IMG/VR virus record: IMGVR_UViG_3300013121_000047
Span: 121,442-185,441 of that record
DNA length: 64,000 nucleotides
Source: a virus
Taxonomy: Duplodnaviria; Caudoviricetes
Direction: 5' to 3' (one strand)
Position 1 is the stretch's first letter. Every line of letters starts with the position of its first letter. Positions 2,235-49,287 of this stretch are shown piece by piece. Under the pieces are notes generated by a model. That model saw only the letters and a program-made list of their open reading frames with translations. It ran no database searches and was not told the origin of the DNA. The position numbers were made by a program, and so were the translations under genes.

Positions 2235-2879
2235 TTACTCTTTTACAAAAACATAATTTTCATTATCGAGAACAAATTTAAGTTTGTAACCAATTTCATC
2301 CATAAAATTTAAAGCTTCTTGAACGTGATGATTTCTTTTTCCGAGGGCATGGTTTAATTCAACAAGTACCAAAGGGTTCTGTTCTGTTAAAACTTGTTTG
2401 CTGCCTAAAAGAACTTCATAATCATATGAATCAACATCAATTTTTATCAAATCAACTTTTAAATTATTTGTTTTTACAAAAGTATCTAAGGTAATAAAAG
2501 AAAATTGTTTATCGTCGACGATTCCTTGCGACCAAACTTTAAATATTCTATCGTTTTTTATTTCGTCTTTTTCACCAAGCGGCTGTGTTTGAAGTGAGAC
2601 ATTATCTTGACATGAGTTGTATGCCAAATTTTCTTTCAACATTTCAATTGTATCGGTTGGTTCAAAAGCATAAACCTTACCTTCGTAAGCGAGTTTAGCA
2701 AATGGGACGGTATACATTCCAATATTAGCCCCAGCATCAATTATAGTAAAATTTGGTTTGATATAGTTGCATAAAAATTCTTTTGTATTCCTTTCAGCGG
2801 ATGTAAACCACCCAGCATCAGATCCATAATATCTAGGAAAATTATATGAAACGCCTTGTTTATAGTTTATAGTTATCAT
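2235..2879 (-). CDS. FkbM-family methyltransferase
   Basis: IIDAGANIGMYT, YAFEP, LIKIDVD. Confidence 0.85.
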   Translation of the reverse strand: MITINYKQGVSYNFPRYYGSDAGWFTSAERNTKEFLCNYIKPNFTIIDAGANIGMYTVPFAKLAYEGKVYAFEPTDTIEMLKENLAYNSCQDNVSLQTQPLGEKDEIKNDRIFKVWSQGIVDDKQFSFITLDTFVKTNNLKVDLIKIDVDSYDYEVLLGSKQVLTEQNPLVLVELNHALGKRNHHVQEALNFMDEIGYKLKFVLDNENYVFVKE

Positions 2880-3454
2880 TCTTTACTTACCTCTGGTGTA
2901 AAAATTCCAACGCCCGCATCAACCTCTGCTTCTTGCAAACAATAATGTTTATAGTTTCCAGTACCATAAAGTTTATCAATACTTGGTTTTACAAATTGAT
3001 AATCCAAAGCTTGTCCTTTGTATTTGTCAAAACCAAACTTAGCTTTGCCGTCTGCATCTGGTACATAAAAATCATGAATTACAACAACTGGTTTTAATCC
3101 ATATTTTTTCATTGTTAAAATTTCATCATGAATTGGCCAATAGTCTCCCCAATGCGCATCAAGAAAAAACAAAACATTCTTTAAGTCTCTTTCTTCTAAA
3201 ATTTCATCTAACACATCTGGAGATGATCCAAAAAAGCGATATACATTTTTTGAGTCTTTTAAATAGTCGTTGGCTATTTCATAGTTTTCTTTATTTATTT
3301 CTATTGTAAAAACTGGCAATTCAAATTCAGCTAGTTTTTTAGCAGACCAACCACGATAGGTTCCTGTTTCTACAATAGTGTCTATTTTATATTCTTTTAT
3401 TAGTTTAGCAATTTCCTTGTAGACATACTTGTCTTCTATTGCACCTTTTTCCAT
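2876..3454 (-). CDS. Class I SAM-dependent methyltransferase-like protein
   Basis: IVETGTYRGWS, TIEIN, FFLDAH, VIHDF. Confidence 0.75.
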   Translation of the reverse strand: MEKGAIEDKYVYKEIAKLIKEYKIDTIVETGTYRGWSAKKLAEFELPVFTIEINKENYEIANDYLKDSKNVYRFFGSSPDVLDEILEERDLKNVLFFLDAHWGDYWPIHDEILTMKKYGLKPVVVIHDFYVPDADGKAKFGFDKYKGQALDYQFVKPSIDKLYGTGNYKHYCLQEAEVDAGVGIFTPEVSKE

Positions 3455-3455
3455 T

Positions 3456-4979
3456 TTAATCTCTTACCTCGTATTGAAATAAATCACCATATATTTTTTT
3501 CACTTCTTCAACCACATCTTTGCATTCGTTGATTACAACTTTATATCCTTCTTTAGCAAGACCTACCGCAAACAGTAGTTGCTGTGACTCTTCTATTAGA
3601 TTAGATTCTTGTTTGTATGTAACTGAATCAAATTTAACAGCTTTTAATTTATCTTGGTTTTCATTTTTGAAAAATTTAATTTGTTCTTGCAAATGAAGTT
3701 TGTTTGACTCATCTGCGGCATTACTTATTTTTGAAGGCATATCAAGGTCTTTTGCAAAAATGCCCAATGCTCTGCCATCTCGTGGCAAACAATTATGAAC
3801 TGTACAATTCTCCAAAACATAAGATTCGTCTTCATCAACTTCTAAATTATAAACCAATCCATTGTAATATTCTTTTTCTGCAAAAATTAGTTTGTGTTTG
3901 CTAAAAGTATTTTCTACCGTAATCGTTGGCATAACAATTTTATCAGTCGATGTTAGTTCATCGGCAACAATAAATAATTTCTTATTTTGTCTTTCAACTA
4001 AAACTGGGTGATTTGGAGTTAGTGGTGTACTTTTATTGTCAAATCCGCTAGATTTGATCACAATCATTTCTCCATCGTATGGTTTAGCATAATTTTTTAT
4101 TATTTTTCGATATCTTCCTTTATGTGTTAACACATAGTCTCCAACAGAAATTCTTACAATTGGCTTTAATCCATTTTTGGTTTGTACTAATTGATTTGGT
4201 TTTAAACACGGACCGCCGAATCCATATCCATGTTTCAAGAATTTATTTCCAACTCTAGAGTCGGAACCTATTGCACTTAATACCGTATCTGGATTGCCTC
4301 CTGCTTTTTTAACAATATCTCCGACCATGTTGGCATATGCAATTTTTGTTGTTAAAAAGCAATTTAAACCAATTTTTGTAATTTCTGCTTCCAACGGAGT
4401 CATTCTTGCAAATTTGGGCTTATTAACAGTATGGGTTTCATATATCTCTTGCAGTAAATCACCAGAAGCTTTATTTGCTTCGCCAATCAATACCATGTCT
4501 GGATTTTCTTGATCTCTTAAAATTGTACCTTGAGCAATAAATTCTGGATTATATGAAACAACATAGTTTAATTCGAGTAATTCATTTTTAATCGAATCAC
4601 AATATCCTGGCATTACAGTGCAGGTTATTACAAGATTTTTTTGAGTTTCTTGCCGTCCAATTTCTTTTAATTTCTGAATTACACTGTCTACCTGCGCGTG
4701 ACTGTATCGTCCGTCGGGCAGGGATGGAGTAGCAACAATTACAAAAAGTGTATCGGAATGTTCTACGGCCTCTCTCATTGAGGTTGTGGCACGAAACTGC
4801 CTAGACTTATCCAATAAATCATTTAAACCAGGTTCAGAACTACGATATTGTTTTGTGTTTATTAAATCTACATAAGATTGATGTAGGTCAACACCTAATA
4901 CATTATATCCATGTTTTTCTAAAGTTAGTGCAAAGCAAAGACCTAATTTTCCGATTCCTATGATTGATAGTTTTTTCAT
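3456..4979 (-). CDS. ugd: UDP-glucose/GDP-mannose dehydrogenase family protein containing a mini-intein
   Basis: IIGIGKLG, YNPEFIAQG, and GYGFGGP|intein|CLPRD, where the catalytic Cys motif is restored after splicing. Confidence 0.9.
   Translation of the reverse strand: MKKLSIIGIGKLGLCFALTLEKHGYNVLGVDLHQSYVDLINTKQYRSSEPGLNDLLDKSRQFRATTSMREAVEHSDTLFVIVATPSLPDGRYSHAQVDSVIQKLKEIGRQETQKNLVITCTVMPGYCDSIKNELLELNYVVSYNPEFIAQGTILRDQENPDMVLIGEANKASGDLLQEIYETHTVNKPKFARMTPLEAEITKIGLNCFLTTKIAYANMVGDIVKKAGGNPDTVLSAIGSDSRVGNKFLKHGYGFGGPCLKPNQLVQTKNGLKPIVRISVGDYVLTHKGRYRKIIKNYAKPYDGEMIVIKSSGFDNKSTPLTPNHPVLVERQNKKLFIVADELTSTDKIVMPTITVENTFSKHKLIFAEKEYYNGLVYNLEVDEDESYVLENCTVHNCLPRDGRALGIFAKDLDMPSKISNAADESNKLHLQEQIKFFKNENQDKLKAVKFDSVTYKQESNLIEESQQLLFAVGLAKEGYKVVINECKDVVEEVKKIYGDLFQYEVRD
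3792..4208 (-). other. Cis mini-intein (139 aa, no endonuclease) in ugd
   Basis: Starts CLKPNQLV, block B LTPNHPV, block F VYNLEVDEDESY, ends VHN followed by Cys. Confidence 0.93.
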
Positions 4980-18987: not shown

Positions 18988-20361
18988 TTAGTTCTTTTCA
19001 GATTCTTCTTCAATTTCTTTTAAAAGAAATCCACCGTGGCCTGTTGCTAATTTATTTCCAAAATAACTTTTTTTAGCACTAAAATCAATCTCATTATTTT
19101 CAACAGTGTTAATTTCAACACCTAAGACTTGGAAGTCTCCTAATTTATTTGTTGTTGATACTAGTCTTGCTTGGATAAAATTTACTGTTTCTAAAACAAT
19201 TTTAGTCGCATCTTTAAACCACTTTGTCTGGTTGAGCAGCTCGTAAACTTTTAGTGCAAATTTGTTTAAACTTTCTATTTTCTGTTCGAAACTAAAATTT
19301 GGCGAACTTAAACTTGCTGTAAGATTATCTATCTGAACAGGATCGATATTTAATTTTTTTGCAATTAAAATTAAATTTCTATAAGTTTTTCTTTTTGTTA
19401 AACTTAATATCGAAGTAGTATCTTCAGTATCTTCTGAAGAATTTCCAAGTAAAATATTTAAAAGTTTTTCGAAAAGTTCAAAATTTTCAATCTTTTTTTC
19501 AAAAAGAGACCTTTTTTCAGAAATAAGTTTGGCAATAAATGCTATAGAACCATAAGCTCCATGCTTACTTTTATTGCCTCCTTGTTTTACACTTATCAAG
19601 TAAGTTTTACCTGTATCCAAATCTTTTATTTCTGCATCGTAACCAATTTGATTGGACTTTGATCCAATGTTTACAACAGGTTTTGAAAATTGGATATCGG
19701 TTCTATTCAATGCAATCATTAAAGGAACTATAAATTCAGAAACATAGATATTTATTTCTTTTCCAAAAATTGCGCCATTTGGAATAGTAATTGAATTGTT
19801 TTTTAATAACCCAGACAATATCTTCATTATAACAATTCCAAACTTACTCTTATCTGTTTTAGCTTTTTTTAATAATAATTGATATATCTTATTCGGATCT
19901 TGAAAACGGTCATTTTCAATCAGCATTTTTGTGTCTGAAAATAAATTTGTAAAATCGAACTTTGCTGGTTGATACAACGCTTGTCCTGCTAATGCTGATT
20001 TGAGCCTTGGATTTATTCCAAATGTAAAATCAAAATCTTCTTTAAAAGATATTCCTCCCCAAGCTGGGATATCATTTTTTGAGTTTAGTTCTCGATCAAA
20101 AAATCTTACAAGATTGTATCTTTGCTTTGTTTTATTTCTTGTTAGTTGAACAAATACTGCACTTTTTATTCGTTCTTTTGACTTAAAATTAACTCTATTT
20201 GCTATCTTGAAGTCACCACCTAGCAGATCGTCTAACTCTAGCTTTATTTCATCATATGAACCATTGAAAATTTTAATATCAGTCAGAGAATAAATTATTT
20301 GTTTATTTTTTTCATCGACGAATAGTTCTCCAATTTTTCTATTTTTTATTCCTTGAGCCAT
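18988..20361 (-). CDS. Hypothetical protein, possible restriction-endonuclease-like fold
   Basis: 457 aa; weak GYD...ISVKQG motif. Confidence 0.55.
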   Translation of the reverse strand: MAQGIKNRKIGELFVDEKNKQIIYSLTDIKIFNGSYDEIKLELDDLLGGDFKIANRVNFKSKERIKSAVFVQLTRNKTKQRYNLVRFFDRELNSKNDIPAWGGISFKEDFDFTFGINPRLKSALAGQALYQPAKFDFTNLFSDTKMLIENDRFQDPNKIYQLLLKKAKTDKSKFGIVIMKILSGLLKNNSITIPNGAIFGKEINIYVSEFIVPLMIALNRTDIQFSKPVVNIGSKSNQIGYDAEIKDLDTGKTYLISVKQGGNKSKHGAYGSIAFIAKLISEKRSLFEKKIENFELFEKLLNILLGNSSEDTEDTTSILSLTKRKTYRNLILIAKKLNIDPVQIDNLTASLSSPNFSFEQKIESLNKFALKVYELLNQTKWFKDATKIVLETVNFIQARLVSTTNKLGDFQVLGVEINTVENNEIDFSAKKSYFGNKLATGHGGFLLKEIEEESEKN

Positions 20362-20393
20362 TGCTGTTATTATAACTAGATTCTAAATAAATA

Positions 20394-22409
20394 CTAGTCA
20401 ATCTCCTCTGGGAAAAGAAAATCACAAACTTCAACAAGTGACGCTAAATTTCCAAGACTCGCAGATAATCCATATTTATTTTTCACAATTGTCCCACAAT
20501 ATACTTCATATAATGGAAATCTTCCTATCACATCTTCTGAAAATTCTCCCCAAATTTTAACAATCAAATCAGAAAATTTCTCTCCAATTACAGCAAGTTC
20601 TAAAAACGGCTTTCCATTTTTTGAGGTTTTAGGTTCCATTTTTCTTAAAATAAACCAAACTTGATCGGTAATTTTTGTATTTTCGCCCTCTTCTAAAAAG
20701 TCAATGTCGCGTATTCCATCTACACTTTTAAGTTTCATCTTTTCAATTGATTTTGAATATTTTTCACTTAAAATTAAGCTAAGGTCAGCGCTCCCAGCTA
20801 ATTCAACCCAATATTTTATTTTTTCGTTCTTGGTCCAATCTTCGGTGTTGGCCAATTTTTCTTTTTGAACCAATTCATCAAGAATAGGAACTATATCATT
20901 ATTTTTCTTTTTCGCAGATGTGCGTTTCAATAAATCAAAATTTTCAACGATAACGTTATACGCTTGTTTATAGTTTTGAACGCCATTTTCTTTATCTGAA
21001 ATAAAATTTAAACTATCGAGAGCTTCAAGACAAATTAGGTTTGTTAAAGCTTTTCTATTAAACTTAGAATGTTTCCATTTACCTTCTTCGTTAACCAATA
21101 AATCTTTTATATCCTTGTAGGGTTTGTTTTTATTAATTTCCTCAAGAGCAGCATCACCAATTCCATCAATTGTTGTTAAACCTGGGATGATAACTTTTTC
21201 CTTCGTTGGATGCATTTCATACCCAGCACTTGAAAAGTTAATATCTGGTTTTGAAAACTTATAACCTAACTTCTGGGCTTCCCTCATTGCAGTTGCTTTT
21301 GGATCTTCTTGACCAACAACCTTTCCTTTTTCTAAGGCGGCATAATCTAAACACGCTGTGATCCATTCATCTGGATAGTATGTCAAAAACCAACAACACT
21401 GATAAGTCGCAATAGAATAAGAAATTGCGTGGGACATGTTAAAGGAATATGATACCAAAGATTCCATTTTATCGAAAAAGATCGAAGATCTCGCCGAATC
21501 CATACCTGCAAATTGCTTTGTTTTTTCGATGAATTCAGTCTTTAATTTTTCGCGTTCCTTCGCTGCTTTTTCTTTATTATTAATTTCTTTTTTAGTAAAC
21601 GCTTTTCTAACCGAGTCTGTTTCATCTAACGGAACGCCACAAAGATGGTGATAAATTAGTTGTAATTGTTCCTGAAAAATAAGAAGTCCGCTTGTTGGTT
21701 CCAATACTTCTTTTAAGAAAGGGTGTTCATATTTAATTTTTTCTGGATTTGCTCTATTGTTCAAAAAGTCTCTATCTACTTTTAATCCCAAAGGACCAGG
21801 ACGGTGAATAGAAGTTGCAATTGAAATATCTTTCACGGATACAGGTTTCATTCTTCTCATAAAATCTTGAGTGTTTGGTTTTACAAACTGAAAAATAGAA
21901 ATAAAGTTTCCATTCCAAAAAACATGTTTATAGACATTAATATCATCCATTGGATTTTTATCAGGGGACAGGTGTTCATAAAACCATTTTTGAACTTCTT
22001 CAAAAGGTATTTCTGACTCAAGTCTTCCTGTTTGTTTTTTGAGAATTTTTCTAACTGTATTCTCAAAAATTCTTAAAGTACCTAATGCTAGGAAGTCAAA
22101 CTTTAAAAAACCAAAATGTTCTAACATACGAAAGTTAACACCCTCGGTCCACGGTGTCTGTAGCGACCTTTTGTCACCTTTGCCGCCAATCACCAGAGGC
22201 ATATTTTGTTTTTCGATCGGCGAGTCCGTGAGGACCACGCCGCCAGCGTGCCGACCGCAATTTGAAATTAATCCAGCTTCGGTTAGGATATTAGGCTGGT
22301 CGTCAATAAAAGCTCCTGTAGGAATATTGTGGTGAATATCATAGACCAGTTTTTTTCCTATTTTTTGTATAGATTTTATCTTGTTATATTCCATTTTATT
22401 AAAGCTCAC
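20394..22409 (-). CDS. dnaE: DNA polymerase III alpha, fragment 4 (split-intein C half plus C-terminal extein); probable start ATG 22394
   Basis: IntC KIKSIQKIGKKLVYDI...GLISN|CGRHAGGVVL; LKFDFLAL, IFQF, RPGP, GLLIFQEQL, YSFNMSHA, PDINFS. Confidence 0.93.
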   Translation of the reverse strand: MSFNKMEYNKIKSIQKIGKKLVYDIHHNIPTGAFIDDQPNILTEAGLISNCGRHAGGVVLTDSPIEKQNMPLVIGGKGDKRSLQTPWTEGVNFRMLEHFGFLKFDFLALGTLRIFENTVRKILKKQTGRLESEIPFEEVQKWFYEHLSPDKNPMDDINVYKHVFWNGNFISIFQFVKPNTQDFMRRMKPVSVKDISIATSIHRPGPLGLKVDRDFLNNRANPEKIKYEHPFLKEVLEPTSGLLIFQEQLQLIYHHLCGVPLDETDSVRKAFTKKEINNKEKAAKEREKLKTEFIEKTKQFAGMDSARSSIFFDKMESLVSYSFNMSHAISYSIATYQCCWFLTYYPDEWITACLDYAALEKGKVVGQEDPKATAMREAQKLGYKFSKPDINFSSAGYEMHPTKEKVIIPGLTTIDGIGDAALEEINKNKPYKDIKDLLVNEEGKWKHSKFNRKALTNLICLEALDSLNFISDKENGVQNYKQAYNVIVENFDLLKRTSAKKKNNDIVPILDELVQKEKLANTEDWTKNEKIKYWVELAGSADLSLILSEKYSKSIEKMKLKSVDGIRDIDFLEEGENTKITDQVWFILRKMEPKTSKNGKPFLELAVIGEKFSDLIVKIWGEFSEDVIGRFPLYEVYCGTIVKNKYGLSASLGNLASLVEVCDFLFPEEID

Positions 22410-22818
22410 GCTCTAGAGTTAGTTTCTCAACTTTTCCTTTATTTAGCTCTATCTTATAGGCAAATAATTCGATTCTATCGTATCCAATTCCATATGAGCA
22501 ATACAATGTAGTCTTTGTATTCTTTTGAAGTCCAGTAATCGAAATCCAAAAACTTTCGTAATCTCGAAGAATATCACATTGTTCTGCTAATAAAAATTCA
22601 TATCCTTCAACTATAGAGTCTTCCCCTAAAGATCTGCAAAGAATACCATATTCAATGGTATCGTTTTCAACATGAATATAGTAATCATCTAAATTTTCAA
22701 GGAAAAGTAGTTTGTTATTATAATGAATTTCTTTTTCTTTTAAGATTTCTAATTTATCTAAAAACAAACAATAAAGTTGTTCAATTTGAGAAATAACTAC
22801 TTTCTTACTTATATCCAT
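22399..22818 (-). CDS. Hypothetical protein between dnaE fragments 3 and 4 (paralog family B)
   Basis: Sits between the dnaE ORFs and overlaps fragment 3; NKLLFLE...RSLGEDSIVE resembles ORFs at 25352-27474. Confidence 0.6.
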   Translation of the reverse strand: MDISKKVVISQIEQLYCLFLDKLEILKEKEIHYNNKLLFLENLDDYYIHVENDTIEYGILCRSLGEDSIVEGYEFLLAEQCDILRDYESFWISITGLQKNTKTTLYCSYGIGYDRIELFAYKIELNKGKVEKLTLEREL

Positions 22819-23996
22819 CCTATAAGGGAATCCTTTTCAGTTAAATCTTTAACTTGTTTCCAACCTTTATCTGTTTGAACTAGATGATCTTCAGTAAGTT
22901 CAACAGTTTTACCATTTTCTACTTGAATTTTATAGACTTCTTTTTCTCCGTTTTCAACTTTAAAAAAGTCAGAACTATATTGAACTTCTCCAACATTGTC
23001 AACATAAGCAAGTTTATCCATTTCAGAAATATCTGAATATTTTTTCCACCCAGAGTTTGTTAACAATAAAGTTGCTTCTGTAAAACAAGACTTAATCTGT
23101 TTAAACAAGACCTTAATACTTGCTTCTAGTTGTGGATAATCTTCTAGCAATTGGTTAAATGTTGGTGAATTTTTCGCCGCACTTTCATAAGAAAGAAACC
23201 ACACACCACGATCAAATCCATCTTGTTTCTTGTCTTCGTCTAAAGTTTCTTTTTCAATTTTTTGAGTAATTGGATTAATAATTTCAAATGGAATTTGATA
23301 TAATCTCGCCAGGTCTTTTATAAGAGATTTTAATTGAAGTTGGTTGTAGTTTGAAACAGGAAGCACGGATTCTTCTCCAAAATGTTCAGTTAATATTTTG
23401 ATTGCCTCTTCTCTGTCTGCGCAATCGCTATTGTGACTCACGATTTCAGTTCCTACCGACGAATAAATAACAAAATAAGAACCATCGACGGTTATATCAA
23501 CAACGCTTACTTCTTCGCATGTAGATGGATTAAATCTTAATATATCTGATATAATACATCCTTTAGAAGAATCTGTATTCAATAACTGTGTATCTTTTTT
23601 AAGATCTTTAATCTTAATATCTACTCCAAATTCATTTGGCAATCTATGGTTTTCGGTTGCTATGATGAAATCATTTTTTGAATTGAAATAAATCTGAAAT
23701 AAAGGCTCATTATAATTTAATTTCCTTGTTTTCGTATACAATACTTTTCGTAAAAAACCTGATGGATCAATGATAAAATCACCAGGAATTAATTCTGATA
23801 TAGGAATTTTACCTTTAGGAGTTTTTACCAATGTCGAAGGTATTAAACAATCTATATCAGGCAAAGAATTATGTGTTAAAAAAAATTTACCATCAATTTT
23901 ATCACTGACATAAAATGTTTGATCATTCTCTATTCCAATATCTATTAAAAGAATAGGAGATTCAGATTCTATCACTTTTATTTTTTTGATCTTCAT
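22809..23996 (-). CDS. dnaE: DNA polymerase III alpha, fragment 3 (IntC, SLPDID, cis intein, extein, IntN)
   Basis: ...FFLTHN|SLPDID|CLIPSTLV...VSHN|SDCADREEAI...KDLARL...KQIKS|CFTEATLL...LTEDHLV. Confidence 0.92.
   Translation of the reverse strand: MKIKKIKVIESESPILLIDIGIENDQTFYVSDKIDGKFFLTHNSLPDIDCLIPSTLVKTPKGKIPISELIPGDFIIDPSGFLRKVLYTKTRKLNYNEPLFQIYFNSKNDFIIATENHRLPNEFGVDIKIKDLKKDTQLLNTDSSKGCIISDILRFNPSTCEEVSVVDITVDGSYFVIYSSVGTEIVSHNSDCADREEAIKILTEHFGEESVLPVSNYNQLQLKSLIKDLARLYQIPFEIINPITQKIEKETLDEDKKQDGFDRGVWFLSYESAAKNSPTFNQLLEDYPQLEASIKVLFKQIKSCFTEATLLLTNSGWKKYSDISEMDKLAYVDNVGEVQYSSDFFKVENGEKEVYKIQVENGKTVELTEDHLVQTDKGWKQVKDLTEKDSLIGWI
23430..23849 (-). other. Cis mini-intein (140 aa) within dnaE fragment 3
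   Basis: CLIPSTLV start, ATENHRL block B, VVDITV block F, VSHN|S end. Confidence 0.9.
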
Positions 23997-24897
23997 ATTT
24001 TACGACTAGTTCCTTTGATTTTTTATAGTTTCTTTGTTCAAGATTTGGAATCTTCAACCAAATTTCTGCTAATTTTAAGCCAGCAATAAATTCCTTCTGT
24101 GTTATTGTGATAATATTAAAATCAGCAGCAACAACGCTTTGTTTTGATAAATTTTTTGTCATTAAAATTTCAAAAGGTTTACCCGTATTTTCGACACCTT
24201 TTAATTCTACAAATAAATTCAAGTCTGGAAGAAAAAAATCTGGTGTATATGCTCCATTTTTAGTTGGAAACGTTTTAGATTCATATCGATATTTTATGTT
24301 AAAAAAATTAAGAACTCTTGCAAAATCTGCTTCTAGTGCACTTTTAAAATAATCACTAAATCCTAAATCAATTCTATATCCTGTTCTTCCATTTAAATGG
24401 ATTTTAATTTTTCCATTAGATTGATCAGTAAATTGACATTTTCTACTACAACGAATGATATGATTATCAGATTTTTTAACTTGAAATATTTTTTTACATG
24501 TTACACAAATTTTCGTTATTCTATTAGAATTATTAAAACATTCTCTTGAACAATATAATTTGTTAATTCGACTAGGTTTTGCTTTAAATGCTTTGTTACA
24601 ATTCAAACAAATTTTTATTATTGTTTTTATTTGGCTATTGTTTTTACAAATTATAGAACAAAATGTTCTATTGCTACTTGTATAGGTTACAAACTGTGTA
24701 TTACAATAATTGCATTTTTTATTAATTTTTCCCTCTTCTTTCTTTCTACCGAAAAGGTTTTTACATTTTTCTGTGCAAAATACTCTTCTTAAACAATTTC
24801 TGTTTCCGCGACTTTTTATTTCGGGTACAGTTATTAAAAACTGAGTTTTGCATTCTTTACAAGATTTCAATAAATTCGTCTGTATTTTTGATTTCAT
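23962..24897 (-). CDS. Free-standing putative homing endonuclease (four Zn-ribbon repeats plus PD-(D/E)xK domain)
   Basis: CxxC...FC/YCxxxC repeats; [10 protein letters not shown]...YE...YTPDFFL...FVELKG; overlaps dnaE fragments 2 and 3. Confidence 0.75.
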
Positions 24898-25348
24898 CTG
24901 CTCTTAATTCTTTCCGAATACCTTCACGAAGCACAATCCATAAATGATTTGGACTACTTTTTAAAATTGTACCATTGTCAAGTTCAAAAACTATTATTCT
25001 ATTATGAAACGAATTTTCTTTATGAACCACAGGTTTATAAGTTTGAGTATGTGTAAGAACCATATCTCCAATATTTACATTTTTTAATTGTTTAACTTCA
25101 TGTTGTGTTTTTATATAGGTATCAGGGGGTAAACACATTTTTTTCTTGCTCAAAAATCTTTCAAACAACAATCCATGTTTTATTGGGTCCACCTGGGTAA
25201 TTCCTAAGAGGTAACAAACTAAAGATCCTGCGCCTGAATTATGAACAGGGATTCCTTCAACATTGTAAGAAGACTTGTTTTCAACAGAAAGATCATATAC
25301 TTTACCAGTATATCTTTTATATGTTTTTGATTTTAGTTTTATTGTCAT
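24857..25348 (-). CDS. dnaE: DNA polymerase III alpha, fragment 2 (IntC, 34-aa extein, IntN)
   Basis: ...VYDLSVE...PVHN|[34 protein letters not shown]|CLPPDTYI...SSPNHLW. Confidence 0.93.
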
Positions 25349-25351
25349 TTA

Positions 25352-25834
25352 TTAGGATTCTCCATCTATGGTCCATGAACCCGATGAATAAAAAGTTAAT
25401 TTTGGAACTACGTTGTTCAAAGGAAGACTATAAATCTCCGATACTATCCGCGCTTCATATTTACACAACTCTTTAATTAACTTTTGATCAAATTTTGATA
25501 AAATCTTGGTGGAGACATCTGTGCAAAAATTATTTCTCGTAAAAAGATATGGTTGCGGGTTAAATTCTTCTTGAATTCCCGTTTCTGATAAAAAACGTAT
25601 TTTTTTATAAATTTTAGCAGTTGTTTCCGTTGAACAGACACAGCCGAAACATATATCAAGGTAATAATAATTCATTTCTTCTAAAAGAAGAAAATTAGAT
25701 TGATTTTCTAATACGAATTTTCTGTCGTGAAATTTAATATATTCTTCACTGCCAAGAATAGTTTCGCAAAGTTTTAAACTCTGTTTTTCTGTATCTTCAC
25801 TTATGGTAGGTACATATTTGAGATTTATTTTCAT
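25352..25834 (-). CDS. Hypothetical protein (paralog family B)
   Basis: NFLLLEE...RFLSETGIQEE. Confidence 0.6.
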   Translation of the reverse strand: MKINLKYVPTISEDTEKQSLKLCETILGSEEYIKFHDRKFVLENQSNFLLLEEMNYYYLDICFGCVCSTETTAKIYKKIRFLSETGIQEEFNPQPYLFTRNNFCTDVSTKILSKFDQKLIKELCKYEARIVSEIYSLPLNNVVPKLTFYSSGSWTIDGES

Positions 25835-26217
25835 GTTATTATTGGATCTTTTAAGCGAGCAGACCTATATTGAATTCCTATGTCTAACGAATAATATGCA
25901 TTAAATGCAATTGGGCTCGGACAATGAATCCAATGAGAAGGAAGCACTTTGTTATTATAGCCATGAATACCAAATTCGGTCAATGCGACATAATCAATGT
26001 GGCAATACGTTGTTTGCCACATTTTATTAGAATCAATAAATGATCTTGCCAAGAAATATTTTATTTCAAGTATAATTTTATCATTTTCGATATATTTTAA
26101 CATTTCGTCATAAGTCCGTTTTAACTTTGATTCGAGTAAGTTTAAATTTACCGATTTGGAGATTTTTTGATACTCAACTTTTGTTAATTTTTCGTTTGTA
26201 TCAATAATATCTTTCAT
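25831..26217 (-). CDS. Hypothetical protein (possible paralog family B)
   Basis: KIILEI...VALTEFGIHG. Confidence 0.55.
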   Translation of the reverse strand: MKDIIDTNEKLTKVEYQKISKSVNLNLLESKLKRTYDEMLKYIENDKIILEIKYFLARSFIDSNKMWQTTYCHIDYVALTEFGIHGYNNKVLPSHWIHCPSPIAFNAYYSLDIGIQYRSARLKDPIIT

Positions 26218-28372: not shown

Positions 28373-29696
28373 TCTTCGTGAGCAGAAAACTTATGGCTTT
28401 ATGCCATGAGTTGAATGCGATTCATTTGTTTATTTTTCAATATAATTTCTTAATGCCTCATCTGAGACTCCAACTATCGATTATTATGTATCATTTTTAA
28501 TATTTTCTTTTATACTTGTAAATCATGATCCAAAGATCATTAAGAGTAAAACTTTCCTTGTCTCCAAAAGACAAGGAAACACTCCTTAAAACGATGGAAG
28601 AATATTCTAAATGTTTTAACTTTTACTCTAATTGGTCTTCTGTTAACAAATCAACCTCGAAAAAGGTTGCCCATTCCAATTCTTATCAAGAATCAAAAAA
28701 ACTATTTCCAAACCTACCAACTGCTTTAATTCAATCTGCAAGAGATTTGGCTCTTGAATCCAATAAAAGCAAAAGAAGTAAAATGGTTCCAATAAAGAAA
28801 AAACACAGTTCCATTCGTTATGATGTTAGAACTTTTTCCTTTCGAAATCAACAATTAACCCTTTCTTCTGTTGATAAAAGAATTAAAACAATCGTTTCTT
28901 TTTATCCTTATATTGAAAACTACTTCAAGAATTGGAAACTGCTGAAAACTGGTTATTTGTCAAAGGTTGGAAAACACTTTTATTTTACTTTTTTGTTCGA
29001 ATCTGATAAAACAAAAGAAACCCAAGAAACAAAAGGAACGGAAACTGTTGGTTTGGATCGAGGAATAATAAACGTTATCGCAACAAGTGAAGGGGAATTA
29101 GTTTCAGGAAAACCATTAAGAAAAAACAAGAGGAAGTATTTATATTTAAGAAGGAAACTTCAAGCAAAAGGCACTCGGTCTGCGAAAAGATTCTTAAAAA
29201 GAATAAGCAGAAAAGAGAAGCGGTTCAGTTTGGATTTTCTTCATTGTTTATCAAACAAACTTATCAAGAATGAAAACGTTAAAACATATGTTTTGGAGAA
29301 TCTTTCAAGAATTAAACCCAAAAAATACAACAAGAAATCAAATAAAGTAGTTTCAAATTGGGGATTCAAGTTATTTGAAGGATTATTAAAGTACAAAGCA
29401 AAACAAAAAGGAATTAATATTGAGTTTGTTGATCCCATGTATACTTCCCAAATTTGTTCTGGTTGCCAAAACCAGAACAAAGAAAGTAGAGATAAGGGAA
29501 TATATAGGTGTAGTGTTTGTAAACTAAAGATTCATTCTGATATTAACGCGGCAATGAACATAAAAAATAGGTTTTCAAAACCTCAAAAATTATCTTCAAG
29601 TTTGTCCTTGAAGCAGGTTGTAGTCAATCAACCAAACGCGAATAATGAGTAATTATTGTTTGCAAGCTCATAACATAAAAACTGTGAGCAGTTGAC
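28373..29696 (+). mobile_element. Non-autonomous IS200/IS605-family (TnpB-only, IS1341-like) element
   Basis: Left-end hairpin CTTATGGC-TTTAT-GCCATGAG (28390-28410); right end GCAAGCTCA...TGAGCAGTTGAC (ends 29696); removal restores an in-frame flanking gene. The left boundary is inferred. Confidence 0.75.
28525..29652 (+). CDS. tnpB: RNA-guided endonuclease TnpB
   Basis: RuvC triad GLDRG / VLENLS / HSDINAA; YTSQICSGC...CSVC zinc finger. Confidence 0.93.
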   Translation: MIQRSLRVKLSLSPKDKETLLKTMEEYSKCFNFYSNWSSVNKSTSKKVAHSNSYQESKKLFPNLPTALIQSARDLALESNKSKRSKMVPIKKKHSSIRYDVRTFSFRNQQLTLSSVDKRIKTIVSFYPYIENYFKNWKLLKTGYLSKVGKHFYFTFLFESDKTKETQETKGTETVGLDRGIINVIATSEGELVSGKPLRKNKRKYLYLRRKLQAKGTRSAKRFLKRISRKEKRFSLDFLHCLSNKLIKNENVKTYVLENLSRIKPKKYNKKSNKVVSNWGFKLFEGLLKYKAKQKGINIEFVDPMYTSQICSGCQNQNKESRDKGIYRCSVCKLKIHSDINAAMNIKNRFSKPQKLSSSLSLKQVVVNQPNANNE

Positions 29697-39492: not shown

Positions 39493-41349
39493 TCAATGAC
39501 ATACTTTTTCTATTTCGTCTTCAATTTTTAGATCAGAAGCGGCAACCCAGCCGCGATTTTTAGTTAGGATTTTATGGTCCTTTGTGCAAGATATTACAGT
39601 GCCGTCATCAAACTCAAGCTCAACAATTTCTTCATTTTCAATTTCGTATTCCCAACATTTCAATACCTTTTGAACAGATCCATCATGAGTATAAACAAAA
39701 TTTTCTGATTTAGAGAAATCTTCTATTGATTTATAACGTTCTGTAAATGGAACAGCAACTTTTGTTCCAGGTAAAAAACATCCTCTACCTGCACCTAAAA
39801 GCATTTTTTTGCCAATTAAATTAAGACTTTGCGCACAAGTTAAAAAATATTTTTCTAATTTTAAGTGTTTGATAACATCAAGCTCTTCTGATGCTCGATC
39901 TACATATTTAGGATCTTCTGATTTAGCTTTACTTACTAATCCATCCATTACAAGATCAACTAATTCATTAAAACTAATACCTTCTTCAGAAAACCCTTCT
40001 TTTTTCAAACTAGCTAATTTGGTTTCTGGTATAAGTTTATTTAAACTTGGTAATTTTGGAGTTTTATCGTAAACGATTTTTTTGTCTATTAAATCAAATG
40101 CAATATCATGTGTTCTTTCAATCGCATCGCATACTAATTCATGATAATCATCTTTATAAATTTGCGGGTAATCTGCAACACAATATTTTTTATACGCTTC
40201 CCACATTTGTTTTGCATTTTTTGGGTACAACTCATGTTCTAAATCTTCTATTTTTTGAGGAATGATATTTGCATCGATATCCTTTAATTTATTCATTGTC
40301 ATTCTTGCAAGCGTTTTGTAAATAATTCGTTCTTTCCAATGTTCAGGGTTTGGATAATGACAATCTGCCGTTGCAATTAATTTTAATCCAGATGTTTTAG
40401 ATAATTCTATTAAGTGATAATTTAAGATATGCTGGTATGGAAGTTTGTTGAACTGAATCTCAAGAAAGAAATCATCTTTATTACCACCAAGAGCAAAAAT
40501 AAACTGGTCCATAAGAAGTTTTAATTCTTTTTGAATTTGATCGAATTTATATTTAATCAGCTTATCCATTTGAATGGAAAAATCTTCCTCTGTTAAATTT
40601 AAATCCATATAATGTTTTATTAGTATTTTGTTAGGTTCCCCCCCTAAACAAGCAGTACTTGCAATTAAATTACCGTTAGCATTTTGTTTAATTAAGTCAA
40701 AATCTAATCTTGGAAAAAAGTAAAATCCATCTTTGTAAGAAAGAGATGTAAGTTTAAATAAACTATTTAAACCAGTTAAATTTTTTGCTAACAAAACTAA
40801 ATGACTTCTAGATCTAAGAGGATCTCTTGTTTTTGCAGATTTTGTTTCTTCTTCGTCTTCAACAACAGTTGTCTCTATATTGCCTTCTTCAGTGTTTTTT
40901 GAATCTTTCAAAAGAACAACTTCTTTATTAAGAAGTTCATAATTTTTAATCTCTTCTTCAAATTCTTTTTTTCTTTTCTCTTCAATTTCATCGAAAATAA
41001 TAAGACCATCATCCTTAGTTGATTTTGGTTTTTTTATTTTTTTAATGGCTTTTTCTTCTTCTTTTCGTTTTAATGTTGCCTCTTTTAATGAAGACCATTC
41101 TAAAAGAGAAGGAATAAAATACGCTTCTATACCATATAGGACTTTAAAGTTCTTACCTTCTTTTGCAAGATTTTCAAAATATTTATAAGAATGAGAAAAC
41201 GTATTCATGTTTCCATGATCCGTTATAGCATGCGCTTCAAGTTCATTTTTTTGGGCAAAATCAAAATGGTCTGGTGGAAGTCCTATTGCGTCTCCAATGC
41301 TTCCATTGGAATGTGCATGTAGATTTACATATCGCTTGGGTTCTCTCAT
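39493..41349 (-). CDS. dnaE: DNA polymerase III alpha, fragment 1 (PHP domain plus split-intein N half)
   Basis: LHAHS, AITDHG, GIEAY, HLVLLAKN..G, TACLGG, ATADCHY; GAGRG|CFLPGTKV...CTKDHKIL..RGWV (95-aa IntN, 39496-39780). Confidence 0.94.
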   Translation of the reverse strand: MREPKRYVNLHAHSNGSIGDAIGLPPDHFDFAQKNELEAHAITDHGNMNTFSHSYKYFENLAKEGKNFKVLYGIEAYFIPSLLEWSSLKEATLKRKEEEKAIKKIKKPKSTKDDGLIIFDEIEEKRKKEFEEEIKNYELLNKEVVLLKDSKNTEEGNIETTVVEDEEETKSAKTRDPLRSRSHLVLLAKNLTGLNSLFKLTSLSYKDGFYFFPRLDFDLIKQNANGNLIASTACLGGEPNKILIKHYMDLNLTEEDFSIQMDKLIKYKFDQIQKELKLLMDQFIFALGGNKDDFFLEIQFNKLPYQHILNYHLIELSKTSGLKLIATADCHYPNPEHWKERIIYKTLARMTMNKLKDIDANIIPQKIEDLEHELYPKNAKQMWEAYKKYCVADYPQIYKDDYHELVCDAIERTHDIAFDLIDKKIVYDKTPKLPSLNKLIPETKLASLKKEGFSEEGISFNELVDLVMDGLVSKAKSEDPKYVDRASEELDVIKHLKLEKYFLTCAQSLNLIGKKMLLGAGRGCFLPGTKVAVPFTERYKSIEDFSKSENFVYTHDGSVQKVLKCWEYEIENEEIVELEFDDGTVISCTKDHKILTKNRGWVAASDLKIEDEIEKVCH

Positions 41350-48384: not shown

Positions 48385-49287
48385 TTAATCCACACTGTGC
48401 TCGTCAATTGCTGTTGCACTTGCAGCCGTTAATGTATCCTTTTCACTATCTTTTAAGATGTAACAACCATCGCAAAGCATAAAAATATACTGATTAAATT
48501 TTTCATCATTGATGATATTGCAAAAATCAGATTTATAGAAATTTTTATCTACTTTAATTTCACCAGTTAAACAGTCAACTAATTCAATTTTTTTCCAGGC
48601 ACCAGCTCCAGAAATTACCGCAACGATACCATTTATTGAATATTTTTCACGATTTTCTTTAAATTTTGGGGAATCACAAAACACCCTTAAGTCATCAAAC
48701 AAAATTTCGTAGTCATTTATTCCTTTATCATATATTATTTGCAATTCTGCTTGCCGATATGGTCTTGCAACTTTATTTTTTATTGTTGCAACCCTTACCT
48801 GAATACCTTTAATAATTTCTTGTTTGTCTATTGTTTCTTTGATTTTTTGAGGAGTATAGACACGCAATCTAACAGAAGCAGCAAAAGGAATTGCCATTCC
48901 GCCTGGGGTCGTTGTATTGTGGTTAATATGACCCTCTGCTATATAATTATGCGTATCTTCTACACATAAATCTAAAACTTCTATTGGCTCATTAACCAAT
49001 TTTGCCAATGGATGATCTTTTAATTTGACCCATTTATTTTTATAAAAAACTTTATGTTCAGCAGTTCCTTTTAAAGAACCTAGTCGGTAATGGGTTTCAC
49101 TTTTATTTTTAACAACTAAATCAGTTATTTTTTTCCAACATTTTGTTTTAGTTTTAATGTCATAACTTTCAATTTCGATTTCATTATCTTCAATATTAAG
49201 CATTCCAACTTCGTCAAATGATTGAAGGCCATTTTCTTGAAATAGTTGTTTAAATGTTACTGTTTCTTCTTTATATTTTTTTTCCAT
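48385..49287 (-). CDS. recA: RecA/UvsX C-terminal fragment fused to the 124-aa C half of an atypically split intein
   Basis: GTAEHKV block B, VLDLCVEDTHNY, INHN|TTTPGGMAIPFAASVRLRV, KNKVARPYR. Confidence 0.9.
   Translation of the reverse strand: MEKKYKEETVTFKQLFQENGLQSFDEVGMLNIEDNEIEIESYDIKTKTKCWKKITDLVVKNKSETHYRLGSLKGTAEHKVFYKNKWVKLKDHPLAKLVNEPIEVLDLCVEDTHNYIAEGHINHNTTTPGGMAIPFAASVRLRVYTPQKIKETIDKQEIIKGIQVRVATIKNKVARPYRQAELQIIYDKGINDYEILFDDLRVFCDSPKFKENREKYSINGIVAVISGAGAWKKIELVDCLTGEIKVDKNFYKSDFCNIINDEKFNQYIFMLCDGCYILKDSEKDTLTAASATAIDEHSVD

Follow-up and report, generated by a model that had tools for sequence, protein, structure and literature searches.

Two inteins six residues apart bracket catalytic aspartates in a fractured phage dnaE gene

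The fractured dnaE locus

The gene under study is a fractured dnaE gene of a large (jumbo) sewage-sludge phage. It lies in a stretch of 64,000 nucleotides, referred to here as the window, which is the final 64 kb of a 185-kb IMG/VR virus record with an estimated completeness of ~51%. All dnaE parts of the window are on the minus strand, where they form four co-oriented fragments (F1–F4) with five extein pieces, one cis intein and three split inteins. The N- and C-halves of the split inteins are denoted IntN and IntC, and F1 sits 14 kb upstream of F2. The parts of the locus are as follows (aa, amino acid residues; ORF, open reading frame).

39493..41349, minus strand: F1, PHP domain and start of the palm, 523-aa extein ending GAGRG, then IntN1 (95 aa)
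24857..25348, minus strand: F2, consisting of IntC1, the 34-aa extein 2 and IntN2
25238..25348, minus strand: IntC1, 37 aa, ends PVHN, then S; C-half of split intein 1
25136..25237, minus strand: extein 2 in F2, 34 aa, SGAGSLV..FLSKKKM; E. coli S364-V397
24860..25135, minus strand: IntN2, 92 aa, CLPPDT.., block B SPNH; N-half of split intein 2 and partner of IntC2
22809..23996, minus strand: F3 (ORF), 395 aa, consisting of IntC2, SLPDID, the cis intein, extein 4 and IntN3
23868..23996, minus strand: IntC2, 43 aa (F3 residues 1-43), ..FFLTHN, Ser+1; C-half of split intein 2
23850..23867, minus strand: micro-extein SLPDID (F3 residues 44-49), codons TCT TTG CCT GAT ATA GAT
23430..23849, minus strand: cis mini-intein, 140 aa (F3 residues 50-189), CLIPSTLV...EIVSHN, no endonuclease
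23088..23429, minus strand: extein 4, 114 aa (F3 residues 190-303), SDCADREE..KQIKS; E. coli ~V404-N507
22812..23087, minus strand: IntN3, 92 aa (F3 residues 304-395), CFTEAT...GWI, block B TEDH; N-half of split intein 3
20394..22409, minus strand: F4, IntC3 (about 45-50 aa, ends ISN, then C) and extein 5 (621 aa)
23962..24897, minus strand: nuclease gene, 311 aa, free-standing, between the halves of split intein 2 (F2 and F3)
22399..22818, minus strand: passenger ORF, 139 aa, between the halves of split intein 3 (F3 and F4)

The five exteins were joined in silico, and the resulting 1298-aa DnaE was aligned to E. coli K-12 DnaE (locus L005). The alignment (E 2e-74, residues 82-892) was gap-free at all four junctions. 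In E. coli numbering, the four insertion points lie between G363 and S364, between V397 and S398 (site 2), between D403 and V404 (site 3), and between N507 and A508, a separate point that is occupied by split intein 3. Sites 2 and 3 are separated by 18 bp, or six residues. Domain matches over F1–F4 included Pfam PHP, DNA_pol3_alpha, DNA_pol3_finger and HHH_6 as well as NCBIfam DnaE models. Extein 5 in F4 starts with CGRHAGGVV.. and contains KFDFL, the fingers and the HhH. The predicted spliced product is a C-family replicative polymerase, DnaE / Pol III alpha, composed of PHP, palm with the Asp triad, fingers and HhH.

The original prediction had placed a six-residue extein, SLPDID, at 23850-23867 between two inteins. 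Direct reading of F3 gave exactly these coordinates, with an IntC ending in THN before SLPDID and a cis intein starting with CLIP after it. The PDxD motif of this extein had been equated with E. coli D401/D403, and the third catalytic aspartate had been assigned to the fourth fragment. The gap-free alignment bears out both assignments and does not place the catalytic aspartates elsewhere: SLPDID corresponds to S398-D403, with PDID aligned to P400-D401-F402-D403, and KFDFL of F4 is aligned with D555. In Thermus aquaticus Pol III alpha (2hpi, 3e0d), the first residue past the cis intein is T466, directly after D463/D465. The six residues between the inteins are a genuine DnaE extein carrying two of the three catalytic aspartates. 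The mature active-site loop reads ..KKKM-SLPDID-SDC.. and needs two splice events six residues apart. Because of this gene architecture, the active site is complete only after all splicing events have finished, as had also been predicted.

Integrity and predicted splicing of the inteins

All intein elements of the locus have Cys1, a block B [TS]xxH, a terminal Asn and a following Ser or Cys, and all frames are open. An exception within this pattern is IntC3, in which Ser stands instead of His before the terminal Asn (SN, not HN). The motifs of the cis intein are Cys1, TENH in block B (65-68), VVDITV in block F, IVSHN in block G, and Ser+1. In the AlphaFold2 model of F3, the cis intein (residues 50-189) was a confident HINT domain with a predicted local distance difference test score (pLDDT) of 75-92, and the unpaired IntC2 with the micro-extein was disordered (pLDDT <50), as expected of a lone split half. 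A Foldseek search with the cis intein model matched the gp41-1 intein (6qaz, E 1e-8, TMt 0.85). Further matches, including 6rix, 4kl5, 1mi8 and others, had a probability of 1.00 and TMt 0.74-0.85, and the solved inteins matched include gp41-1, MchDnaB-1, Npu DnaE and Ssp DnaB. By nucleophile, blocks, modelled HINT fold and intein-free junction, the contiguous intein at 23430..23849 is a class-1 intein and is predicted to splice.

Split intein 2 was compared with the contiguous site-2 inteins of the relatives P0006, P0010 and P0011. IntN2 aligned over its full length with the N-part of these inteins, and its break falls where they run on into an IntC2-like part. IntC2 is homologous to their C-part and also gave a weak match to the gp41-1 IntC. 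Together, IntN2 and IntC2 correspond to one contiguous intein, as in a split intein of a fractured gene, and are predicted to trans-splice. IntN3 matched Pfam Intein_splicing and Hint as well as the DnaX mini-intein 7cfv.

We infer from these sequences that all four inteins splice. One cis-splicing and three trans-splicing reactions would restore the mature 1298-aa polymerase post-translationally, each reaction being self-contained, with its own Cys1, block B His, terminal Asn and Ser/Cys+1. The cis intein would fold while it is being made, as it needs no partner, and would most likely be excised first or independently, leaving IntC2-SLPDID-SDCADREE..-IntN3. IntN2 of F2 would then dock on IntC2 and ligate ..KKKM to SLPDID, and the two other split inteins would attach F1 and F4. 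The product would be the same whichever of the two neighbouring events came first, with the predicted junction peptide ..FLSKKKMSLPDIDSDCADR.. after both splices. A kinetic or purely steric order of splicing is possible.

A gene in this many pieces could also be decaying or non-functional, or could be an assembly artefact, so that the micro-extein would be biologically meaningless. The SN ending of IntC3, the partial completeness of the window record, and the fact that splicing is here a prediction from sequence point in this direction. However, the frames are open and the catalytic residues of the inteins are intact. Comparison of exteins 4 and 2 with those of L006 and L007 gave ratios of nonsynonymous to synonymous substitution (dN/dS) of 0.02-0.06 at saturated dS (>1.2), and the SLPDID codons differed among loci only synonymously. 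These values indicate strong purifying selection on the exteins. The first 270 codons of extein 5, compared with L006 and L008, were excluded from the dN/dS values because an indel had misaligned them. A complete relative of 390,884 bp with direct terminal repeats has its DnaE in the same four pieces, F1 lying about 16 kb upstream. No PolB was found in this complete genome, and its single PolA-like match was sub-threshold; the fractured dnaE is therefore probably essential. PolB was likewise not found in the window's own record, a result of little weight alone at ~51% completeness.

The architecture also recurs. It was found in independent contigs from several studies, and the window allele itself reappears in independent sludge/wastewater runs from 2015 to 2025, in one independent sludge run with 3 differences in 3101 nt. 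A version that differs by ~4% over F2, the nuclease gene and F3 came from a 2015 activated-sludge run. With these results, the reading as decay or artefact is largely refuted, and we give it almost no credence.

Occupancy of the two sites among relatives

Relatives were collected from IMG/VR loci, a search of 5.8 billion proteins, an exhaustive HMMER search with an intein-free allele as query, and a degenerate DNA pattern. Several of them carry more than one name: P0005 is L007/L009, P0004 is L006, the P0006 contig is L014, and P0007 is L022:3864-5732. This clade of phage DnaE showed every occupancy state of sites 2 and 3 on exteins that are nearly identical. Both sites are empty in P0008 and P0017, and also in about 125 more distant DnaE representatives. 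Site 2 alone holds a contiguous intein in P0005, P0006, P0010, P0011 and P0014-16, and a split intein in P0019 and P0022-24. Site 3 alone is occupied in P0009, P0033, P0084, P0081 and L008. Both sites are occupied by a split and a cis intein, with SLPDID between them, in the window, P0002, P0003 and P0004/L006; by two contiguous inteins in one polypeptide in P0007 and L021 (~2860-4086); and by a contiguous intein and an S11-type split IntN in P0176. The degenerate DNA pattern for HN-SLPDID-C gave one real match among metagenome contigs, L021, which combines the site-2 intein of P0014 and the site-3 intein of P0009 on identical exteins. Two other pattern matches, L019 and L020, lay outside DnaE and were discarded as chance.

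The alleles with empty sites show the junctions that splicing would produce. Empty alleles read exactly ..GLPDIDSDCADREE.., and intein-free alleles show GLPDIDSD. The intein-free P0008 reads ..FLAKNKKGLPDIDSDCADREE.. / ..AKNKKGLPDIDSDCADREE.., exactly the predicted junctions, and PDIDSDCADREE is uninterrupted (site 3 empty) in L007/L009, P0005, P0006 and P0008. All occupied alleles have Ser at the +1 position of site 2, where empty alleles often have Gly, and Ser or Thr at the +1 position of site 3. This pattern is the footprint expected of functional splicing, as judged from the aligned alleles. The gap-free alignment, the intein-free junctions, the HINT fold and the recurrence in independent contigs confirm that the SLPDID observation is not a chance pattern.

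In a tree built on the 114-aa extein 4, the occupancy states were scattered, and a well-supported clade of 17 rows held all four states at <0.1 substitutions per site. Occupancy thus switches many times across very short extein distances, and such turnover on near-identical exteins is typical of mobile selfish elements. Each intein faces the same six proximal residues of the extein, SLPDID, whether the neighbouring intein is present or absent. Because each intein family persists without the other and next to the same proximal residues, mutual dependence is not required. Each family is taken to work alone, because it persists in an apparently essential gene. We consider it probable that two independent, mobile class-1 inteins occupy adjacent points in the active-site loop of the palm, that they are spliced out post-translationally, and that they reflect selfish gain and loss rather than a switch. 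Selfish elements would have been gained and lost repeatedly at a conserved target, leaving the present arrangement.

Four points weigh against this explanation. First, splicing is a prediction from sequence and model. Second, the AlphaFold2 model of the relative with both inteins in cis, P0007, had a mean pLDDT of 64, with the linker <50 and the second intein at moderate confidence, and this low-confidence model does not establish that there is room for two folded HINT domains six residues apart. Third, the extein tree comprises 114 columns beside the insertion site, and co-conversion during homing can distort it. Fourth, every allele in which the 140-aa type of site-3 intein was seen (4/4) also had the split site-2 intein and the nuclease, so the mobility of the two inteins could be not fully independent.

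The original prediction went further and proposed that each intein serves as flanking context for the other, with ordered or conditional splicing gating the polymerase as a possible post-translational switch on replication. The architecture, in which the active site cannot form before both events, is in line with this proposal, as is the position of the cis intein directly after a catalytic Asp, insertion at catalytic residues being termed rare (Novikova et al., PMC4760082). Conditional splicing also has precedents in replication proteins, such as the M. smegmatis DnaB inteins, as outlined in PMC6195587 and PMC7360933, and the allele with both sites occupied has been maintained in nature for 10 years. 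The comparative data argue otherwise. Either intein occurs alone on near-identical exteins, intein-free alleles exist in the same clade, and the proximal extein residues are unaltered by the neighbour. Cys1 is conserved in 8/8 aligned site-3 inteins, but no further, non-catalytic Cys or other sensor feature is conserved across them. Neither conserved sensor features nor lineage-wide retention of the inteins, as would mark a conditional-splicing switch, was found. The many further inteins in the same genome and its relatives fit an accumulation of parasites. With single-occupancy and empty alleles, rapid turnover and no conserved sensor Cys, the claim of mutual dependence or a regulatory switch finds no comparative support, and we regard it as very unlikely.

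The nuclease gene bears on how the two inteins spread. Its 311-aa product consists of zinc-ribbon repeats and a C-terminal T7 endonuclease I-like PD-(D/E)xK domain. It matched PDB 1m0d (T7 endonuclease I) with E 2.6e-4, YTPDF..FVELKG lying opposite the active-site region, and family matches were to Pfam Phage_endo_I (weak) and PHROG endonuclease families. Homologues at the same place are 69% identical in L006 and 98% identical in L017. The nuclease is presumed to be a homing endonuclease.

The site-3 mini-intein, which has no nuclease, might hitch-hike by co-conversion with the nuclease-bearing split intein, so that the pair and the micro-extein would move together as a composite cassette. This would fit the restriction of the 140-aa site-3 type to alleles with the split site-2 intein and nuclease (window, P0002, P0003, P0004/L006 and the X14 variant). 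It would also fit the comparison of the window with L014, in which DNA identity was 93.5% to 7 nt past site 2, homology was then lost over the whole block, and it resumed 2 nt before extein 4 at 82%. Since homology breaks at the insertion points and the identity of the flanks shifts there, the locus is a mosaic with breakpoints at these positions. Exactly these breakpoints reappeared in a wastewater metatranscriptome run, X9 (an RNA library that may contain DNA), which contained a window-allele contig and a contig joined at the L014 breakpoints 25129 / 23431. As both contig forms were present, two intein cassettes coexist in one sample. Co-conversion and interference of neighbouring inteins are also documented in haloarchaeal MCM (PMC10643990). 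However, identity between the window and L006 is uneven across the supposed cassette: 47% for the cis intein, 74% for IntC2 and IntN2, and 69% for the nuclease. Moreover, other double alleles pair other subtypes, such as those of P0014 (site 2) and P0009 (site 3) in L021, and double occupancy therefore arises by independent events too. The evidence for a cassette comes from a small sample, and we hold joint movement to be possible but doubtful.

A stricter form combines both ideas. If splicing followed a strict order, with the cis intein first and trans-splicing second because the two ends of SLPDID could not hold folded HINT domains at the same time, and if the nuclease-less mini-intein spread only by co-conversion with its nuclease-bearing neighbour, the two would constitute one composite element, whose last splicing step would create the metal-binding site and could be used for timing. 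We judge this form to be unlikely. The natural series of alleles (empty, either site, and both sites in three split/cis permutations) makes the influence of a neighbour on splicing directly testable. The same series allows testing of how homing endonucleases invade targets that overlap the insertion site of another element. An Asp at position -1 and a very short extein, both tolerated if splicing occurs as predicted, are of practical interest for multi-fragment protein ligation.

Known systems and further elements of the locus

The site of the cyanobacterial DnaE intein, which we take to lie near E. coli Y754/G755, before FNKSH, is uninterrupted in the window (YSFNMSHAISY). The cyanobacterial Ssp/Npu intein (Wu et al. 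1998, cited in PMC2677866) resembles those of the window in being a canonical split class-1 intein in the same host protein. Its halves measure about 100 aa (IntN) and about 36 aa (IntC), and its trans-splicing restores Pol III alpha. Unlike the window, the cyanobacterial DnaE has just one intein, whose halves lie at distant loci, and a nuclease gene is absent.

Dassa, London, Stoddard, Schueler-Furman and Pietrokovski reported fractured phage genes from ocean metagenomes, three DnaE loci among them, in which split inteins are accompanied by free-standing endonuclease genes of the Vsr-like or GIY-YIG type (Dassa et al. 2009, PMC2677866). In those loci, as here, a split intein interrupts a phage replication gene, a free-standing nuclease gene separates its halves, and all parts share one strand. 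The hosts include DnaE, and one DnaE locus also contains part of an additional in-frame intein. By their description, the window differs from them in having four pieces and a cis intein, with one piece 14 kb away, in the T7 endonuclease I-like type of its nuclease, and in having inteins 6 residues apart around catalytic aspartates.

Several inteins in one replication protein are also known from T. kodakaraensis Pol (85 aa apart) and P. abyssi CDC21 (48 aa apart; PMC8966425), from haloarchaeal MCM-a/MCM-d (PMC10643990) and from M. smegmatis DnaB i1/i2 (PMC6195587). These cases share with the window the sporadic distribution on the extein tree, the occurrence of all occupancy states and the question of interference. 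In contrast to the tens of residues between inteins in the published cases found, the spacing in the window is 6 residues (18 bp), one partner is split, and insertion is right after a catalytic Asp. Insertion points a-g of Pol III alpha were surveyed in 2016 (Novikova et al., PMC4760082). Shared with that survey are the concentration of inteins in the Pol III alpha catalytic core and the existence of multi-intein DnaE proteins; as a point of difference, sites 2 and 3 are in the palm, at the PDxD motif. A full-text literature search, limited in reach, returned no report of two occupied sites six residues apart and no report of an intein directly after DnaE D403. Multi-intein proteins and fractured phage genes are known, and the 18-bp spacing that brackets two catalytic residues is an extreme variant of them that we did not find described.

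Some relatives have these inteins at shifted positions or in other split forms. In P0031, P0116, P0103 and P0158, inteins of the site-2 family lie one residue upstream (between R and S of ..R/S-G-A-P-D-I-D), which leaves seven residues through D403; the insertion point has moved by one codon between lineages. The site-3 intein is split between blocks F and G in L024:1-1560 (an ENA contig of 255,832 bp), L008:10019-10558, P0012, P0013, P0018, P0032, P0043, P0081 and P0176. In these, IntN has about 150 aa and IntC just 16-21 aa, as in MIHSCRTSNKTIVSHN followed by SDCADRD. A 350-aa Vsr/DUF559-like ORF lies between the halves in L024 and in the P0018 locus, and a 30-nt gap separates them in L008. 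A 2025 review lists natural atypical split inteins of the short IntN type alone, the S11-type splits being synthetic (PMC11766414). The site-3 inteins split between blocks F and G (S11-type) may be an undescribed natural class.

A fifth DnaE point, E. coli K758/S759 (YSFN[QA]/SHAISY), holds a split intein in L006:12600-13496, L007:12119-12660 and L008:12614-13960. An extra ORF lies between its halves in L006 and L008, and the L006 DnaE thus has five inteins. This point is empty in F4 of the window (YSFNMSHAISY).

The 139-aa passenger ORF in split intein 3 gave no family match. At its position in L017, L006 and L008 there are unrelated ORFs of 151-165 aa between intein halves that are conserved. 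An 11/12 match to a sigma-70 promoter (TTGACA-17-TATAGT) lies within the coding sequence of IntN3 at 22974..23002 (minus strand), upstream of the passenger ORF, in a region whose total of such sites was not above shuffled sequence. A promoter and terminator scan of 20300-25900 gave no more promoter-like sites than shuffles and zero terminators, a result that fits co-transcription without counting as evidence for it.

The 14-kb gap between F1 and F2 contains a TnpB/IS605 OrfB-like gene at 28525..29652 (plus strand) with Cas12f1-like TNB and OrfB_IS605 domains. Elsewhere in the window, Pfam intein splicing domains were matched at 3792..4103 (ORF 3456..4979, minus strand) and at 48916..48993 (ORF 48385..49287, minus strand). 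The phage genome is unusually intein-rich.

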